Source: Candidatus Woesearchaeota archaeon (GTDB lineage: Archaea > Nanobdellota > Nanobdellia > Woesearchaeales > GW2011-AR4). Taken from it: 64,000 nt of DNA. Below the pieces are notes generated by a model that was given only the letters and a program-made list of their open reading frames with translations, had not been told where the DNA came from and searched no databases. The translations under genes and the position numbers were made by a program. Below are positions 3,825 through 58,766 of the stretch, one piece after another (the stretch's first letter is position 1; each line of letters starts with the position of its first letter). Where the stretch lies: assembly GCA_018303655.1 (NCBI GenBank), contig JAGVXT010000012.1, positions 17,996 through 81,995 on the forward strand. Reading direction: 5' to 3'.

Positions 3825-4099
3825 AAACAAACTATTCTAACAAAGGATAGCCCATTTCATCATTTTTGATGTAATTGCTGAGAAACATCTCTAAGAAGCT
3901 GATGGTGAAGGTTTAAATATCTTTCTCATTTTCTTTAAACAATGCCAAAACTTCCATTCAAATTCTGGCTTCTCAGCAACGTCGAAAATTTTTAAATTTT
4001 CGGAGTTTCTGAAATCTAAAGGATTTCAGCAACATTTATAAAGCAAGATTATTTCTCCGACGTAATCTCAAAAAATTAGTATTTTGGAGAAATGGCAAA

Positions 4100-4873
4100 A
4101 TGAGCGTTGCAATTGACTTAAAAGGAAAAAAGGCAATAGTGTTTGGGATTGCGAATGACAAGAGCATTGCATGGCACATTGCTAAAAGGCTGAATGAGGC
4201 AGGATGCAGGATTGCAGCAGGCTACCAGGAAAGGATTGAGCCATTGTTCATGCCGCTGATGAAGGAGCTGCACAACCCAGTTTATGAAAAATGCGATGTT
4301 GTAGATGACGCTTCAATGGATGCTTTCTTTAAAAAAGTGCAGGAAGAGTTTGGCAAAGTTGATTTTTTGGTTCACAGCATAGCTTTTGCCAAAAGAGAGC
4401 ATCTCCAGGGCAAGTTCATGGATGTTGACAAAAGAGGCTACCAGGTTGCCCACGAAGTGAGCGCTTATTCATTGGTAGAATTAACAAGGCGGGCAGCGCC
4501 TATGCTTAAAAAAAACGGCTCAATAATCGCAATGACTTACCTTGGAAGCGAAAAAGCAGTTCCGGGCTACAATATAATGGGCGTTGCAAAAGCAGCCCTT
4601 GAATCATGCGTAAGGTACCTTGCAGTTGACTTGGGAGAGAAGCAGATAAGGGTCAATGCAATCTCTGCAGGCCCGATAGCAACGCTTGCTGCATCAGGAA
4701 TCGCAAACTTTGCCGATATGCTTCTAAACTATGTTGCGAAAGCGCCATTGAAGAGAAACATTACAGCTGATGAGGTTGCAGACTGCGCATTATTCCTTTG
4801 CAGCGACCTGTCAAAGGCAATTACAGGGCAGGTTATTTACGTTGATGCTGGATACAGCGCGATGGGTATATAA
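4100..4873 (+). CDS. fabI: enoyl-[acyl-carrier-protein] reductase (NADH), FabI type
   Basis: 257 aa, collinear with bacterial FabI: GIANDKSIAW, VHSIAFA, YLGSEKAVPGYNIMGVAKAALE, RVNAISAGPI.TLAASGI, FLCSDLS..ITGQVIYVDAGY. Confidence 0.85.
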   Translation: MSVAIDLKGKKAIVFGIANDKSIAWHIAKRLNEAGCRIAAGYQERIEPLFMPLMKELHNPVYEKCDVVDDASMDAFFKKVQEEFGKVDFLVHSIAFAKREHLQGKFMDVDKRGYQVAHEVSAYSLVELTRRAAPMLKKNGSIIAMTYLGSEKAVPGYNIMGVAKAALESCVRYLAVDLGEKQIRVNAISAGPIATLAASGIANFADMLLNYVAKAPLKRNITADEVADCALFLCSDLSKAITGQVIYVDAGYSAMGI

Positions 4874-4900
4874 ATATTAAAATTAGTTTTAGGATTCGCT

Positions 4901-5446
4901 ATGGGCAATGAAAGAATTTTAATTTTTCAGCCACATGATCTGGCAGGATACACTAATTCTCGAGAGGGTATCGAGGATTTTGTGGATAACGTGAGGCAAT
5001 GGCATCCCAACGATATTAAGGGGCAATTTCAATTATTCCCTTACGTGCTTCCAGACATAGGAAGAAAAGGCTGGAATTATGCAGGAATTGTTTACAGAAG
5101 AGAAATGAAAAACATTGATGAACATCCTTTAAATTTTATTCCAGGTCAACAAGTTGTTGAGAGCTTTCGCGATTTGGCATCAAGATTAGGCGCTGAAACT
5201 CGAGACTTGGAATTTTTTAAGGGCAGAATTGAAATACCAGGACCAACCCAAGAGCAATATTTAAGAACTATTGAAGCTGCTTACTCCCCTACACATGAGG
5301 AGTTTAAAGCTGCAGGATTAAGGAAGCCAAAACAGGTAACAAGATTTTTTTTGAATTTACATGATTCCCTAGTTGAACAAATTATTATGCCTTATCTTGA
5401 GTTGATGGGATTTAAAGGGGATATTAATGTTAAAAAAGTGGCCTGA
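4901..5446 (+). CDS. hypothetical protein
   Basis: 181-aa ORF in an operon-like array. No motif recognised. Confidence 0.5.
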   Translation: MGNERILIFQPHDLAGYTNSREGIEDFVDNVRQWHPNDIKGQFQLFPYVLPDIGRKGWNYAGIVYRREMKNIDEHPLNFIPGQQVVESFRDLASRLGAETRDLEFFKGRIEIPGPTQEQYLRTIEAAYSPTHEEFKAAGLRKPKQVTRFFLNLHDSLVEQIIMPYLELMGFKGDINVKKVA

Positions 5447-12967: not shown

Positions 12968-13216
12968 AAAACCACCCATCAGTCGAATGCGAGTGAGCAA
13001 ATCATTCGCTCACAATTCACTGGGTGGCATGTTTAGGTGCTATCCCATTCAGATGGTTTTGGACATCACAAAAACCATAGGTTTTTGGAATCCCGAAAAT
13101 CTGTGATTTTCGCGACTACAAAATTCCACTTATTAATGGATGATTTTTGAGCACATCCAAATTCCATGCAATATGCTTGTAACACATAAACCACTTATGA
13201 AACATAAGTGGAATTT
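12968..13216. other. hairpin-dense intergenic island (candidate structured ncRNA)
   Basis: Hairpins seen: CCACCCA...TGGGTGG enclosing GTGAGC..GCTCAC; ATGGTTTTG..CAAAAACCAT; CAAAAACCATAGGTTTTTG; CGAAAATCtgtGATTTTCG; CCACTTATgaaacATAAGTGG, plus a distal AATTCCACTTAT partner. Confidence 0.4.
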
Positions 13217-26182: not shown

Positions 26183-26478
26183 GCATATTTATGGGTTTTT
26201 GGGGATGGAGTAAGTTGGTTGAAAGTTCATTTAACGTACAATTTTAAGTGAGGTTTTTCTCCTCGAAAAATTCCCCTCGTGAGCAAAATTGAGGCAACCC
26301 ACAAGTTTCAGAGCGGATAAATTTTGTAGAGCTGAAAAAATGTTAGGTTGAGTGAGCGATGCCTTTGATGGCTGAGCGAACGAACTGGCTTTGATGCCCG
26401 ATTTCGTGAGGATTTAGTTGTGAGTGTCGCCCAAATCCGCTTTGATGCGGATTTGGATTTACTTCTCATATTATTTTA

Positions 26479-44579: not shown

Positions 44580-44671
44580 TGGGGCTGCGGAGACTTTCGA
44601 AAATAATAAATTATTCGAACTCCGGTCACGAGGCCCCGAACCCCGGATACTGCCAACTGTACTACAGCCCC
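44580..44671 (-). tRNA. tRNA-Pro(CGG) with a 20-nt intron at 59/60 (T-loop)
   Basis: Acceptor GGGGCTG/CAGCCCC, anticodon arm CGGGG-TTCGGGG-CCTCG with no intron there, T-arm CGGAG-TTCGAA|intron 44594-44613|T-CTCCG. BHB register: TTCG pairs with CGAA, flanked by 3-nt bulges. Confidence 0.75.
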
Positions 44672-48412: not shown

Positions 48413-48508
48413 AGTGTCTTGTGAGCGAGTAGCTCACTCGCATTTCACTATTATTTTCTTATTGATTATTAAAAGTTTCTAAAGAAATACCGCAAGAATA
48501 CAGAATAA

Positions 48509-49989: not shown

Positions 49990-50150
49990 CCAACCACAAC
50001 AAAACCTATTTATTTTTGTGGTCGGCAAGAGTCAGTTGTGAGCGAGTTCGCAGTGAGTTGCGAGAGCTCGCCTCTCGCTCGCTCATCTCCCAGCTCACTC
50101 GCATGTCACTCGACAACAAACAATTTGTAATATCTAATTACTTTGTTGTT
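49990..50150. other. GC-rich hairpin-dense island in a divergent intergenic region (candidate ncRNA)
   Basis: Hairpins GCCAACCACAA...TTGTGGTCGGC, GAGCGAG...CTCGCTC, the GCGAGAGCTCGC palindrome and GACAACAAA...TTTGTTGTT. It contains GCTCACTCGCATGTCACT, which is shared with 48437-48455 and with the tRNA-Ser T-loop intron. Confidence 0.4.
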
Positions 50151-51944: not shown

Positions 51945-51977
51945 GTTTTCTACTTCAAAAATATTGCCAGACAATTT

Positions 51978-52155
51978 GCGGGGGTAATTCCAAAGCATTA
52001 GTTTTGGAATCCTTAGAGCGAAGTCTGGCCAAACGCGCAGGACTTAAGGAGCACCTATTGTAAATAGGATTTCAGATATCCTGTTCCTTAGTGGATCCGA
52101 GGGTTCAAATTGCAGCAAGCGAGCATGCTTGCGCATGCATATCCCTTCCCCCGCA
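51978..52155 (+). tRNA. tRNA-Leu(UAA) with three introns (8/9, 37/38, 59/60)
   Basis: Exons assemble to an 86-nt class II tRNA: GCGGGGG-T-A-GCG-AAGTCTGGCCAAA-CGC-G-CAGGA-CTTAAGA-TCCTG-variable arm-GAGGG-TTCAAAT-CCCTT-CCCCCGC-A. Introns are about 51986-52016 (31 nt), 52049-52077 (29 nt) and 52110-52141 (32 nt). Each has a BHB-like register. Confidence 0.75.
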
Positions 52156-55620: not shown

Positions 55621-55787
55621 GGGCCTGTGGTCTAGCGGCTATGACATCGCCTCGACATTTGCTTTAATTCAGCTATCGGCACGGCGAAGGTCACCAGTTC
55701 GAAATGTCGAGTCCCGAGATGCGAGGTTCGCGAGAAACTCGCTCACCAGCTACCGAGACTCGCAAACCGAAAATCTGGTCGGGCCCA
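55621..55787 (+). tRNA. tRNA-Val(GAC)-like with two introns (37/38 and 59/60) and an unusual C33
   Basis: Acceptor GGGCCTG/CGGGCCC, anticodon stem TCGCC/GGCGA, loop T-C-GAC-A|C, intron 1 at 55658-55681 (24 nt, good BHB). T-arm ACCAG-TTCGAA|intron 2 at 55704-55773 (70 nt)|T-CTGGT, with TTCG pairing to CGAA and 3-nt bulges. Confidence 0.65.
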
Positions 55788-55852
55788 TTTATTACATAAA
55801 AAAAGGTGAGAGAATTAAATCAAGGCTTTATCCAAGGATATTCTTCTCTGTA

Positions 55853-56896
55853 TTGTTTTTTGCAATCTTGCTGCTTGCTTTCTACATAACAAGGCCTTTT
55901 CTGCCGGCGCTTTTCACAGGAGCAATCATAGCCTATTTGGCGTATCCATTGTATGAGAAAATATTAAGGCGCATCAGGAAAAAGCACATTGCTGCATTTA
56001 TTGTCACAATATTTATAATTCTTCTATTCACATTGCCATTTGTCCTTATTCTTGGTGTTGTTTCAAAAGAAGCTTACGCCACATATATAACCTTAAGCCA
56101 GCATAACCTTGGGACAAACTTCCTGAAGGTAGTATGTAAGGATGAGAACTGGCTGTCCTGCAAATTTACAAAATCCTTTGTCGGATTTTTGCCGGAAGAA
56201 GACCTTGATTATTACCTTCAGGCCACAATTAAAAGAATAACGGGCTTTATTATAGACAATGCCTCTAAATTTGTGGCTACAATCCCCTCAATCCTGTTGA
56301 ATTTCTTTGTCATGATTTTTGTGGTTTATTATTTGCTTAAAGACGGCGAAGCAATAGGAAAGAGGATAAAAAACATACTGCCTTTGAAAGAGTCCCACAA
56401 GCAGCATGTGCTCGATAAGTTCAGTGAGGTTACATCAGCGGTACTCTATGGCAACATCTCAACAGCGCTTATGCAGGGCATTTTGGGTGGTCTTGGATTC
56501 TGGATAATTGGAATGTCATCGCCGATTTTATGGGGGTTTGTGATGATGCTGTTTGCATTAGTGCCTTATTTCGGCACAGCCATTGTGTGGCTGCCAGCTG
56601 CATTAAACCTCATATTCATAGGTTATCTTCAAAATGACAACTCATCTACAATTCGTGGCATTATTCTGGTTGCCTATGGGATATTGGTTATAAGCAGCAT
56701 TGATAACATACTTAAGCCAAGATTGATAGGAGCAAAAGGAAAAGTGCATCCTGTTTTGGTGCTTCTTGGAGTCTTAGGCGGCCTGAGCCTGTTCGGGTTT
56801 ATAGGGTTAATTCTGGGGCCTGTGATGCTTGCCCTGCTGATGACGTTTGTCGGCATATATGAAGAGGAAAAAGCAGAGCTTGAGAAATATTTTTGA
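55853..56896 (+). CDS. AI-2E family (PerM/UPF0118) transporter
   Basis: 347 aa, polytopic, with a characteristic C-terminal half (ALVPYFGTAIVWLPAAL...ISSIDNILKPRLIG). Confidence 0.75.
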   Translation: MFFAILLLAFYITRPFLPALFTGAIIAYLAYPLYEKILRRIRKKHIAAFIVTIFIILLFTLPFVLILGVVSKEAYATYITLSQHNLGTNFLKVVCKDENWLSCKFTKSFVGFLPEEDLDYYLQATIKRITGFIIDNASKFVATIPSILLNFFVMIFVVYYLLKDGEAIGKRIKNILPLKESHKQHVLDKFSEVTSAVLYGNISTALMQGILGGLGFWIIGMSSPILWGFVMMLFALVPYFGTAIVWLPAALNLIFIGYLQNDNSSTIRGIILVAYGILVISSIDNILKPRLIGAKGKVHPVLVLLGVLGGLSLFGFIGLILGPVMLALLMTFVGIYEEEKAELEKYF

Positions 56897-58386
56897 CCAA
56901 AATGAAGCTTAAGATTAAGGATATAGCCATCGCAAGCGGCGGCCCTTTAATTGCAGTCATGAACAGTAAGGATGCTGCAATGTTTGATATCCACGTGATG
57001 GACAGGATAAAGATAAAAAAAGGGAAGATTATTGAGACTGTTGTTGTTGATATAGCACAAAGCAAAAAAGTAGTCCCAAAAGGCAGGCTTGGTGTTTTTG
57101 AAGAAGTGATCAGATCTTTGAATTTAAAAAATAATGACATTGTAGATATCGCCATTGCCAGAAAGCCCCTGTCGATTGATTACATTAAGAAAAAACTAGA
57201 TGGGCAGAGATTAAGCAAAGAAGAAATTAACCAGATAGTGTGGGATATTGTGCACAACAAGCTAAGCGCTGTTGAAATGACATATTTTGTTGCAGCATGC
57301 TATACAAATGTCATGACAACTGAAGAAACAATATTGCTGACTAAGGCAATGGTTGAGCACGGCGATGTGCTAAAGCTGAACAAGTATCCAGTTGTGGACA
57401 AGCATTCTATTGGAGGAATCCCTGGCAACAGGACTACACTTGTTGTTGTCCCGATAATCGCTGTTGCCGGATATTACATTCCAAAAACCAGCTCAAGGTC
57501 GATAACAAGCGCTGCCGGAACTGCCGATACAATGGAGGTTCTTGCAGATGTGACCTTTCCAATAAAAAAGATGAAGGAAATTGTCCTGAAAACAAGAGGA
57601 TGCATTGTATGGGGCGGTGCATTAAACCTTGCTCCTGCTGATGATAAGATTATAGCAGTTGAAAGGCCTTTGGAGATAGACGCTGAAAGCCAATTGCTTG
57701 CTTCAATAATGGCAAAGAAGCATTCTGTTTCAAGCACCCACATCCTCATTGATGTTCCTGTCAACAAGGACTCAAAAGTAAAAAACAGGGTTGAAGCTTT
57801 AAAACTCAAGAAGGAATTTGAGAAAATCGGAAAAAAGCTGAAAAAGCATATTAAGGTGCTGATAACAGACGGCAGGCAGCCAATAGGCAATGGCATAGGA
57901 CCTGCTTTGGAAGCAAGGGATGTACTATGGGTGCTGAAGAGGGATCCTAGGAGACCAATTGATTTGGAAAAAAAATGCCTGATGATGTGCGCCAATATTT
58001 TTAGCATGGTTGGACTAAAAGAAGGGTATAAAAAGGCTTTATCAATTCTAAATTCTGGCAAAGCTTACCAAAAAATGGTTGAAATAATAAAAGCCCAAAA
58101 CGGCAAGGAAATTGCAGCAGAAGACATTAAGATCGGCAAATACTCTTATGATGTTTTGTCAGCAAAAAGCGGCAGAATTATCGACATAGATAATGTGCTT
58201 GTTTCAAGAATCGCAAGGATTGCAGGAGCTCCTCACGATAAAGGCGCTGGAATTTATTTGTATAATCATATTGGCAGCAAAGTAAAAAAAAAGGAGAAAT
58301 TGTTTACAATCTATTCTGAAAGCAGGCACGAGTTTGAGTATGCTAAAGATATGGCTAAGAGTTCTAAGGTGTTTATTATAAGATAA
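56893..58386 (+). CDS. deoA: AMP phosphorylase / archaeal thymidine phosphorylase family
   Basis: 497 aa. The N-terminal extra domain (KLKIKDIAIASGGPLIAVMN) precedes the glycosyltransferase-family-3 core (DKHSIGGIPGNRTT, SRSITSAAGTADT). Confidence 0.8.
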   Translation: MTKMKLKIKDIAIASGGPLIAVMNSKDAAMFDIHVMDRIKIKKGKIIETVVVDIAQSKKVVPKGRLGVFEEVIRSLNLKNNDIVDIAIARKPLSIDYIKKKLDGQRLSKEEINQIVWDIVHNKLSAVEMTYFVAACYTNVMTTEETILLTKAMVEHGDVLKLNKYPVVDKHSIGGIPGNRTTLVVVPIIAVAGYYIPKTSSRSITSAAGTADTMEVLADVTFPIKKMKEIVLKTRGCIVWGGALNLAPADDKIIAVERPLEIDAESQLLASIMAKKHSVSSTHILIDVPVNKDSKVKNRVEALKLKKEFEKIGKKLKKHIKVLITDGRQPIGNGIGPALEARDVLWVLKRDPRRPIDLEKKCLMMCANIFSMVGLKEGYKKALSILNSGKAYQKMVEIIKAQNGKEIAAEDIKIGKYSYDVLSAKSGRIIDIDNVLVSRIARIAGAPHDKGAGIYLYNHIGSKVKKKEKLFTIYSESRHEFEYAKDMAKSSKVFIIR

Positions 58387-58389
58387 AAA

Positions 58390-58575
58390 TACGCCGCGAC
58401 TCGGACTTGCATGTGGCAAACAGTGACATGCGAGGCTCACTAGGGACTCGCTCGCCATTTACCCGCTTGCCACAATTTGAACCGAGAAACCCTTGCGGGA
58501 ACCAGCTTTCGCATTGCGGGGAATTCCCATGAATTCCAGCTCAAGGCTAGCGCAGTGCCAGATTGTGCCATCGCG
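58390..58575 (-). tRNA. tRNA-Ser(UGA) with two introns (37/38 and 59/60)
   Basis: Acceptor GCCGCGA/TCGCGGC plus G73, anticodon stem CTAGC/GCTGG, loop CTTGAG|A (anticodon 58539-58541), intron 1 at 58506-58537 (32 nt). Long variable arm (CCCgcaaGGG). T-arm CTCGG-TTCAAA|intron 2 at 58404-58473 (70 nt)|T-CCGAG. Confidence 0.75.
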
Positions 58576-58690
58576 GCAATAAGAAAAAGTTTTACTGGTT
58601 AATTTAAATTTATTGATTAATTTTTAATCAGAAAGCTAATCCCGTCAAAAACCTCTGGTTTTTGGGGTGCTCGAAAATCTTTAATTTTTG

Positions 58691-58766
58691 ACACTTTGCA
58701 GGGTTTGAACCCAGACGTCCTTGCGGACGGGAGGTTCTCAGTCTCCTGTATGCCACTTTGAGCGGC
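58691..58766 (-). tRNA. tRNA-Leu(GAG)-like sequence without a matching 5' acceptor strand
   Basis: On the minus strand: GCC-GCTCAAAGT-GGC, GGAGA-CTGAGAA-CCTCC, variable arm CGTCCgcaaGGACG, T-arm CTGGG-TTCAAAC-CCCTG, 3' CAAAGTG. No CACTTTG 5' strand, and 4 extra nt sit before the anticodon stem. A TTTATAAA box lies about 40 nt upstream. Confidence 0.3.

Follow-up and report, generated by a model that had tools for sequence, protein, structure and literature searches.

The 64,000-nucleotide (nt) stretch of contig JAGVXT010000012.1 analyzed here, hereafter the window, comes from a Candidatus Woesearchaeota archaeon. On its minus strand, from 58577 to 58392, lies what is very probably the functional gene for tRNA-Ser(UGA) in this Woesearchaeota-type member of the DPANN, interrupted by introns at positions 37/38 and 59/60 of the tRNA. 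The pre-tRNA gene (58392 to 58577) is 186 nt long and specifies a mature tRNA of 84 nt; CCA is not encoded, and the discriminator G is at 58392. On the minus strand the two ends of the gene pair as GCCGCGA...TCGCGGC-G, forming a 7-base-pair (bp) acceptor stem plus the discriminator. The gene is GC-rich, and the surrounding genome has a GC content of about 38%. Exon 1 (58540 to 58577, 38 nt) supplies tRNA positions 1 to 37, with the anticodon TGA at 58543 to 58541, and is identical to the 5' part of the orthologous genes. It is followed by intron 1 (58508 to 58539, 32 nt) at the canonical 37/38 site, which starts with CTGGAATT and finishes with ATGCGAA. Exon 2 (58476 to 58507, 32 nt) contributes positions 38 to 59, comprising the 3' strand of the anticodon stem, the long variable arm, the 5' strand of the T-stem, and the T-loop as far as A59. 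Intron 2 (58406 to 58475, 70 nt), at 59/60, has an hBHBh' motif, starts with TTGTGGCA, and finishes with CATGCAAG. Exon 3 (58392 to 58405, 14 nt) provides positions 60 to 73, that is, T60, the 3' strands of the T-stem and acceptor stem, and G73. The predicted exon junctions read CCTTGAG^AGCTGG between exons 1 and 2 and GGTTCAAA^TCCGAG between exons 2 and 3, where the caret marks the splice position.

When we removed 58539 to 58508 and 58475 to 58406 in silico, the product was an 84-nt class II tRNA that ARAGORN identified as tRNA-Ser(tga), with all stems perfect. A first-pass annotation of this DNA had already proposed a tRNA-Ser(UGA) with introns at 37/38 and 59/60, and that assignment was borne out. 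The intron lengths it gave, 32 and 70 nt, were also correct, but the intervals themselves (58506 to 58537 and 58404 to 58473) were both 2 nt too low. Excision of those intervals leaves a C.U mismatch in the anticodon stem, beside the loop, together with a G53.U61 pair. We adopted the intervals shifted by +2 because the original ones give a defective cloverleaf and the shifted ones a perfect cloverleaf. As folded by ARAGORN, the spliced 84-mer has a 3-bp D-stem, the anticodon loop CTTGAGA, and the T-arm CTCGG-TTCAAAT-CCGAG; its variable arm is long, with the stem CCC/GGG and the loop GCAA. It also shows G18G19 in the D arm, a 5-bp anticodon stem closing a 7-nt loop with U33 and a purine at 37, and a 5-bp T-stem whose loop fits TTCRANY. 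The archaeal serine identity set includes a long variable arm and a G73 discriminator. Both features are present in the spliced molecule, along with the UGA anticodon.

In its unspliced form, the gene yielded no tRNA from either ARAGORN or Rfam, the latter in both gathering and E-value modes. With intron 2 deleted, ARAGORN itself reported the remaining 32-nt intron as i(37,32). Of the 84 positions of the spliced product, 82 are the same in L153, an orthologue that naturally lacks introns (L-numbers denote orthologous or repeat-bearing loci in other genomes). The other two make up a single pair of the D-stem and differ in a compensatory manner, C-G to G-C. The Rfam tRNA model (RF00005), whose gathering score is 29 bits, gave 46.2 bits for L153, 51.9 for L146, and 50.1 for L151, all of them intron-less orthologues. 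With the score of L153 serving as a proxy for that of the spliced sequence, the covariance-model check after intron removal that the first-pass annotation had suggested was thus passed by proxy. Intron-containing orthologues, L003 and L006 among them, gave no match to the Rfam tRNA model and were unusable as controls.

The motif of intron 2 is a near-strict hBHBh', a near-perfect bulge-helix-bulge (BHB). Its outer helix is the T-stem itself (CTCGG/CCGAG, 5 bp). In the central helix, T54 to A57 (TTCA) face TGCA with three of four positions paired and a U55.C mismatch, and two 3-nt bulges, AA^T and AG^T, lie on opposite strands. The inner helix is formed by TGTGGCAA (58474 to 58467) and TTGCCACA (58419 to 58412), which give 8 bp and can be extended to 12 pairs. 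Together with the T-stem, the intron folds as a long hairpin of -38.9 kcal/mol. The two arms of the inner helix had been correctly recognized at first reading, as had the T-loop register: TTCA/TGCA with 3-nt bulges ending in T is found in the same form in the tRNA-Leu(UAA) gene of the window, at 52103 to 52140. The mature sequence alone cannot distinguish an insertion at 59/60 from one at 60/61, as there is a T at both flanks, and we chose 59/60 because the geometry of the bulges selects it. Intron-less orthologues read TTCAAATCCGAG across the site.

Two kinds of comparison bear on this motif. For one, we wrote a BHB scanner, which is specific for intron 2 and not for intron 1. Across 300 shuffles of the pre-tRNA it returned a total of 2 candidates whose outer and inner helices reached 5 and 8 bp or more, respectively; in the real intron 2 they measure 5 and 12 bp. 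For the other, we aligned by hand the motif cores of 14 introns at 59/60, drawn from 11 tRNA-Ser orthologues or variants and from three tRNA genes of the window, tRNA-Leu(UAA), a Val-like tRNA, and tRNA-Pro(CGG). Paired cells made up 93.5% of this alignment, compared with 76% in shuffles, and pairing fell to 19 to 50% when the partner was shifted by one to three columns. Both sides had changed in 8 of the 12 pairs; among these are all three pairs of the inner helix and, in the central helix, the alternation of A57-U with G57-C. The central helix also takes the forms TTCG/CGAA and TTCA/TGAA among related 59/60 introns.

With Ser, Leu, Val-like, and Pro(CGG), there are four 59/60 introns within this one 64-kb window. 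The Val-like tRNA, on the plus strand at 55622 to 55790, is interrupted at 37/38 and, by 70 nt, at 59/60; the latter intron has the central helix TTCG/CGAA with the bulges AA^A and AA^T and is rich in GCGAG/CTCGC words. Position 33 of this tRNA is apparently a C. In tRNA-Pro(CGG), on the minus strand at 44580 to 44671, the sole intron is a 20-nt, AT-rich sequence at 59/60 (TTCG/CGAA, bulges AA^T and AG^T).

Intron 1 is canonical in its position but follows a relaxed form of the motif, in which the anticodon stem serves as the outer helix. The two bulges read AG^C and AA^A, and the 3' splice site falls within the latter. An internal hairpin of 7 bp, GGAATTC(ATGG)GAATTCC, is not contiguous with the central helix, being offset from it by 1 and 6 nt. 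This hairpin has one compensatory change, in L156. We accepted the boundaries of intron 1 because alleles lacking it define them: metagenome DNA contigs of related strains, from groundwater and soil, skip exactly 58508 to 58539, without positional ambiguity.

A scan for the variable-arm pattern gave about 25 orthologous tRNA-Ser(UGA) genes, and the number of introns per gene among them is 0, 1, 2, 3, or 4. There are no introns in L153, L146, and L151. A single intron is found at 37/38 in L003, L006, L150, L147, and L156 and in the D-loop in L158 and L165. The combination seen in the window, 37/38 with 59/60, recurs in L026, L149, L004, L145, L168, and L162. Other pairs are 53/54 with 59/60 in L148 and D-loop with 53/54 in L009. 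Three introns are carried by L005 (anticodon stem near 29/30, 37/38, and 59/60), by L154 and L166 (37/38, 53/54, and 59/60), by L002 (D-loop, anticodon stem, and 53/54), and by L021 (D-loop, 53/54, and 59/60). All of D-loop, 37/38, 53/54, and 59/60 are occupied in L022, which is the same locus as L144. This four-intron tRNA-Ser(UGA), on CAZSIU010000018.1, adjoins deoA; the maximum for an archaeal tRNA gene was stated in 2011 as three introns (PMC3239211). At the level of strains, related contigs also carry shorter versions in place of the 70-nt intron, and the window's own allele, with all 70 nt, is present without differences in contigs of three runs from different samples.

The closest relatives, L026/L170, L149, and L005, have an intron of only 32 to 33 nt at the same 59/60 site. 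The 33-nt intron of L005, TGTGGCAA/TTGCCACA helix included, recurs complete and in order within the 70 nt of the window's intron 2, and the 37 extra nt therefore sit in the apical loop of the latter. A short form with the layout TTG-stem-GCGAGCATG-stem-CATGCAAG occurs at 59/60 of tRNA-Ser in L148, L154, and L166, and also in the tRNA-Leu(UAA) of the window. The latter gene (51969 to 52149) has three introns, one of them at 59/60 with the same TTCA/TGCA register and bulges ending in T. Its 59/60 intron is the short, 32-nt form and, unlike intron 2 of tRNA-Ser, carries no nested repeat. When this intron was compared with the tRNA-Ser(UGA) introns of L148 and L154, 28/32 positions were identical, a score reached by none of 2,000 shuffles of the interior. 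Common ancestry of the 59/60 introns, which the first-pass annotation had put forward for alignment, is thus supported for the Leu-Ser pair.

Kinship between intron 2 and the intergenic islands of the window, proposed at the same time on the strength of a shared motif, is more weakly supported than the Leu-Ser relationship and holds in an altered form. The 17-mer on which the proposal was based, GAGCCTCGCATGTCACT, lies at 58438 to 58422 on the minus strand and has no second site in the window, even when 3 mismatches are allowed. What is shared is the 13-mer CTCGCATGTCACT, which recurs at 50098 to 50110; a 12/13 version lies within the repeat copy at 48431 to 48449. Both are on the plus strand, opposite to the strand of the intron copy. 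By itself the 13-mer match is not significant (BLAST E of 0.16 to 0.24), but a profile of the repeat family matches the intron with E = 0.0015.

This repeat is an imperfect palindrome of about 47 nt, with a consensus of about CAGTGAGTTGTGAGCGAGTTCGCAACGAGCTCACTCGCATGTCACTG; shorter variants and nested longer variants occur. Its predicted fold, at -27.6 kcal/mol, is a long hairpin interrupted by a 3x3 internal loop. When we scanned the sequence collection for GCTCACTCGCAKGTCAC, more than 60 of the matches listed were in contigs of metagenome-assembled genomes (MAGs) of Woesearchaeota or Nanoarchaeota, with several per genome, and the remaining ones among those listed were scattered in high-GC bacteria in a chance-like manner. 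Copies are often found, in both orientations, on the hairpin tips of host sequences, and their flanks pair with each other more than mismatched flanks do, with a stem of at least 7 bp in 33% versus 12%. The hosts are AT-rich intergenic hairpins, two recurrent RNA-like contexts, and T-arm introns of tRNA genes (L009/L029, L056, and L070). In L009 the repeat fills a 53/54 intron site that is empty in L021 and L002. Within the window, nhmmer placed copies on the plus strand at 50030 to 50110 (E = 3e-9, a longer nested variant) and at 48414 to 48449 (E = 6e-9, in the 5' leader of tRNA-Arg(UCG) and antisense to that tRNA). It placed another on the minus strand at 13021 to 12987 (E = 5e-5), on a CCACCCA/TGGGTGG hairpin. 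The match in intron 2, a probable diverged copy at 58421 to 58456 of the minus strand (E = 0.0015), is at the tip of the intron in the sense orientation of the tRNA. For this match too there is an empty orthologous site, as L005, L026, and L149 have the same 59/60 intron without the 37 nt. From these comparisons we conclude that intron 2 probably owes its extra 37 nt to a diverged copy of the repeat, nested in an older intron.

The same profile was not significant on the 59/60 intron of the Val-like tRNA (E = 0.22). When 17 repeat-bearing loci were searched with Rfam, no known RNA family was found around the copies, and on reading the sequences we saw no C/D box guide RNA or kink-turn in intron 2 or in the repeat. 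We also considered whether the repeat could itself be a BHB intron and ruled this out: its 3-nt loops face each other, as the 3x3 internal loop, and lack the 4-bp stagger. One non-coding context of the repeat recurs as TAGGCGAGGCAAAA...[repeat]...TTTTGCCGAGCAC...GGCGAAGCC, with the repeat on the hairpin tip in either orientation and no Rfam match. It was found in L120, L132 (the same as L006 6850 to 7050), L066, L050, L140, L128, and L088, and in antisense in L133, L134, and L034. This context may represent a small RNA not yet described or a composite repeat of larger size.

Downstream of the tRNA, a plus-strand open reading frame (ORF) at 56893 to 58386 encodes a deoA-type, thymidine/AMP-phosphorylase-like protein with the domains Glycos_trans_3N, Glycos_transf_3, and PYNP_C. 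Its nearest relatives, at 76 to 89% identity, are all from groundwater or sediment MAGs labelled Woesearchaeota or Nanoarchaeota, and the host organism is therefore a DPANN archaeon. A T5 run at 58385 to 58389 of the minus strand lies directly 3' of the tRNA and is likely an archaeal terminator. The deoA stop codon on the opposite strand overlaps this run; the two genes therefore converge, with the 3' end of the tRNA facing the deoA stop. An earlier description of the tRNA gene as starting 4 nt after the deoA stop was right about the minus strand and the adjacency to deoA, but it is the 3' end of the tRNA that lies there, not its start. On the other side, a TATA-box-like AATAAATTTAAATTA occupies 58600 to 58614 of the minus strand, 22 nt upstream of tRNA position 1, and is kept as AATAAATTTATATTA in most of the orthologous loci. 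We read it as an archaeal TATA box, with a presumed role as the promoter. A Trm112-like ORF lies upstream on the minus strand.

Three further arrangements were noted in passing. About 110 nt upstream of tRNA-Ser, on the minus strand at 58691 to 58766, is a tRNA-Leu(GAG)-like body. Its CTGAGAA loop resembles that of an anticodon arm, its variable arm is of class II, and its T-arm contains a single mismatch, but no 5' acceptor strand is recognizable; it may represent a fragment or else a split or permuted gene. In L011 (JACPIE010000029.1), a 22-nt duplicate of the tRNA-Ser 3' end from the T-loop on (GAATCCGAGTCGCGGCGTTTTA) adjoins deoA at 3906 to 3925. The full tRNA-Ser gene of that contig is at 4848 to 4962, about 930 nt away, and two small ORFs (88 and 125 amino acids) lie between them. 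The arrangement resembles the integration of a small cassette at the 3' end of the tRNA, with a crossover near the 59/60 intron site. Elsewhere in the window, the non-coding plus-strand segment at 26330 to 26460 contains three spaced units, GCCTTTGATGGC, GGCTTTGATGCC, and CGCTTTGATGCG, which may be a repeated protein- or RNA-binding motif.

From the established course of archaeal tRNA processing (PMC4090602, PMC3239211, and PMC5829648), we infer that the pre-tRNA is transcribed, cleaved, and ligated. Transcription from the conserved TATA-like box would produce a 186-nt precursor with two introns. The presumed EndA endonuclease would cut between the second and third nt of each 3-nt bulge, leaving a 2',3'-cyclic phosphate and a 5'-OH. 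The presumed RtcB ligase would join the exons of 38, 32, and 14 nt and would probably circularize the introns, and RNase P, RNase Z, and the CCA-adding enzyme would finish the ends of the tRNA. Among DPANN archaea, EndA enzymes that bear an L3 loop are associated with large numbers of disrupted tRNA genes (PMC5829648). The EndA of the host is expected to be of the alpha4 type with an L3 loop, as in the other DPANN of that study.

Several observations weigh against the account given so far of the two introns and of the repeat. The central helix of intron 1, CUUG/UGCG, is weak, with one Watson-Crick pair, two G.U pairs, and one mismatch; the BHB scan does not separate this motif from background, and RNAalifold run on five homologous copies of intron 1 recovered no BHB and preferred a different local fold. 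The 14-row alignment used for covariation was built around the proposed structure of intron 2 and is biased towards it. Only one metatranscriptome had words in common with the locus, and its contigs are gene-like ones from relatives, with no spliced product of the host organism among them. One of these contigs is from a relative without intron 1, skipping 58508 to 58539, that still carries a 53/54 intron, and another is from a relative that carries intron 1 together with genomic 3' flank. As for the repeat, the match in intron 2 is weak, with about 73% identity by eye at E = 0.0015, and the 44 copies in the profile were chosen by an exact 17-mer anchor. No target-site duplication was seen at intron 2, nor was one seen in L009 when compared with L021.

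Other explanations of the locus have to be weighed against these findings. It is very improbable that this is a dead tRNA gene whose two insertions are never removed. The exons are intact and 82/84 identical to those of intron-less L153, with a compensatory pair as the sole change. Both insertions lie exactly at splice-permitting positions and motifs, and the promoter box and terminator are conserved. A dead gene would fit the blindness of standard tRNA finders at the locus, the failure to observe spliced RNA in one metatranscriptome, which consists of relatives' contigs, and the possibility of a second tRNA-Ser(UGA) copy elsewhere in the genome. However, at least four other tRNA genes of the window are interrupted in the same manner, and therefore not all of them can be dead. 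Hardly any weight can be given to an assembly artefact, in which the 70-nt insert would come from a chimera of strains. Although the contigs of many strains break inside the tRNA, those of three runs, from different samples and studies, cover 58300 to 58501 without differences, and others do so for 58475 to 58578. The identical 70-nt allele in three runs therefore means that the insert is not an assembly artefact.

A more serious competitor, which we nevertheless regard as doubtful, is that the extra 37 nt are a GC-rich hairpin that grew locally, through slippage at the GCGAGCATG loop of the intron itself or duplication of that loop, and whose likeness to the repeat is due to chance or convergence. 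Some resemblance to the CTCGCATG end of the repeat is already present in the ancestral loop GCGAGCATG, the exact shared word is only 13 to 14 nt, the E value of the profile match is modest (0.0015), and neither a target-site duplication nor a clean insertion boundary is found. Yet the match reaches past the shared word: GAGCGAGT lies upstream of it and CTCGCATGTCACTG downstream, both correctly ordered and spaced. In the orthologous L009 gene the repeat also stands in the 53/54 intron, at a site empty in L021 and L002, and hairpin tips, as in intron 2, are its typical location. There is, in addition, a small chance that intron 2 has been kept because the 70-nt RNA, once excised and probably circular, is itself functional, perhaps as a stable, protein-binding hairpin. 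Introns of some euryarchaeal tRNA-Trp genes encode C/D box guide RNAs. The long, stable hairpin of -38.9 kcal/mol that intron 2 forms with the T-stem would agree with such a function, as would the conserved sequence of the carried repeat across many genomes, but intron 2 matches no Rfam family and has no C/D boxes. Moreover, L026, L149, and L005 manage with 32 to 33 nt and others without any intron, and any function of intron 2 is therefore dispensable.

Among these explanations we favor the nested origin of intron 2. It would have begun as a 32- to 33-nt member of the 59/60 family found in tRNA-Ser(UGA) and tRNA-Leu(UAA), and a copy of the dispersed, GC-rich hairpin repeat would later have entered its apical loop. 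Such an insertion would lengthen the inner helix and leave the bulges and the central helix untouched, so splicing should be unaffected.

Multi-intron tRNA genes with a 59/60 intron have already been described in DPANN and Thermoproteales, and the gene structure is not new. In the Thermoproteales, tRNA genes with multiple introns have been documented (Sugahara et al. 2007, 2008; Fujishima et al. 2010; reviewed in PMC4090602). As in that group, near-identical introns are found here in tRNA genes of different isotypes, with rapid gain and loss between close relatives (PMC4090602), and the sharing of an intron between Leu and Ser is the pattern that was called intron transposition there (Fujishima 2010, in PMC4090602). 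In contrast to the Thermoproteales, the host is a member of the DPANN (Woesearchaeota), a mesophilic groundwater organism with about 38% GC and a presumed EndA of a different type, and one tRNA-Ser intron holds a nested, dispersed hairpin repeat. In ARMAN-2 (Micrarchaeota, DPANN), pre-tRNA-Cys(GCA) has a 59/60 intron and pre-tRNA-Pro(GGG) has introns at 53/54 and 59/60; a 59/60 intron of ARMAN-2 is cleaved in vitro (PMC3239211). Our case resembles ARMAN-2 in its DPANN host and in the T-loop position 59/60, and the pairing of 53/54 with 59/60 is also seen in the orthologues L021, L022, and L148. The Cys intron of ARMAN-2 differs in being 13 nt long, with a relaxed hBH motif and an epsilon2 enzyme, whereas intron 2 of tRNA-Ser has 70 nt and a near-strict hBHBh'.

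The repeat is reminiscent of bacterial repetitive extragenic palindromic (REP) elements and REPINs and of Rickettsia palindromic elements, which are likewise short, imperfect palindromes with many copies per genome in both orientations. Its frequent position on hairpin tips and inside structured-RNA genes adds to the likeness to REP/REPIN-type elements, which is an analogy only; unlike those elements, the nested repeat is archaeal, and no associated transposase was identified. We found no published description of a Woesearchaeota hairpin repeat. What this locus adds to the earlier work is exact natural boundary controls, an intron family shared by Ser and Leu, and a nested hairpin repeat.

Like several others in the window, this gene escapes ARAGORN and Rfam. 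With finders blind to such genes, genomes of the clade will seem to lack tRNA-Ser(UGA), and inferences on completeness or codon usage drawn from them will go wrong. As a single orthologous gene with 0 to 4 introns, exact alleles without intron 1, and both a short and an expanded 59/60 intron, it forms a clean natural series. The intron family in two isotypes and the nested repeat bear on how archaeal tRNA introns arrive and grow. We tentatively propose, as one possibility, that the 32- to 33-nt family has spread between tRNA-Ser(UGA) and tRNA-Leu(UAA), keeping to one T-loop site, and was later colonized in its apical loop by the repeat that settles on hairpin tips across the genomes of Woesearchaeota. 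The introns of tRNA genes might then serve as safe landing pads for a small mobile palindrome, and palindromes might in turn be raw material or a vehicle for new introns in DPANN. A 2026 survey of Asgard archaea reports that no route of intron arrival was found (bioRxiv 10.64898/2026.10.13.758758). If true, our proposal would offer a concrete route by which tRNA introns arrive and a record of how archaeal tRNA introns grow and perhaps spread.

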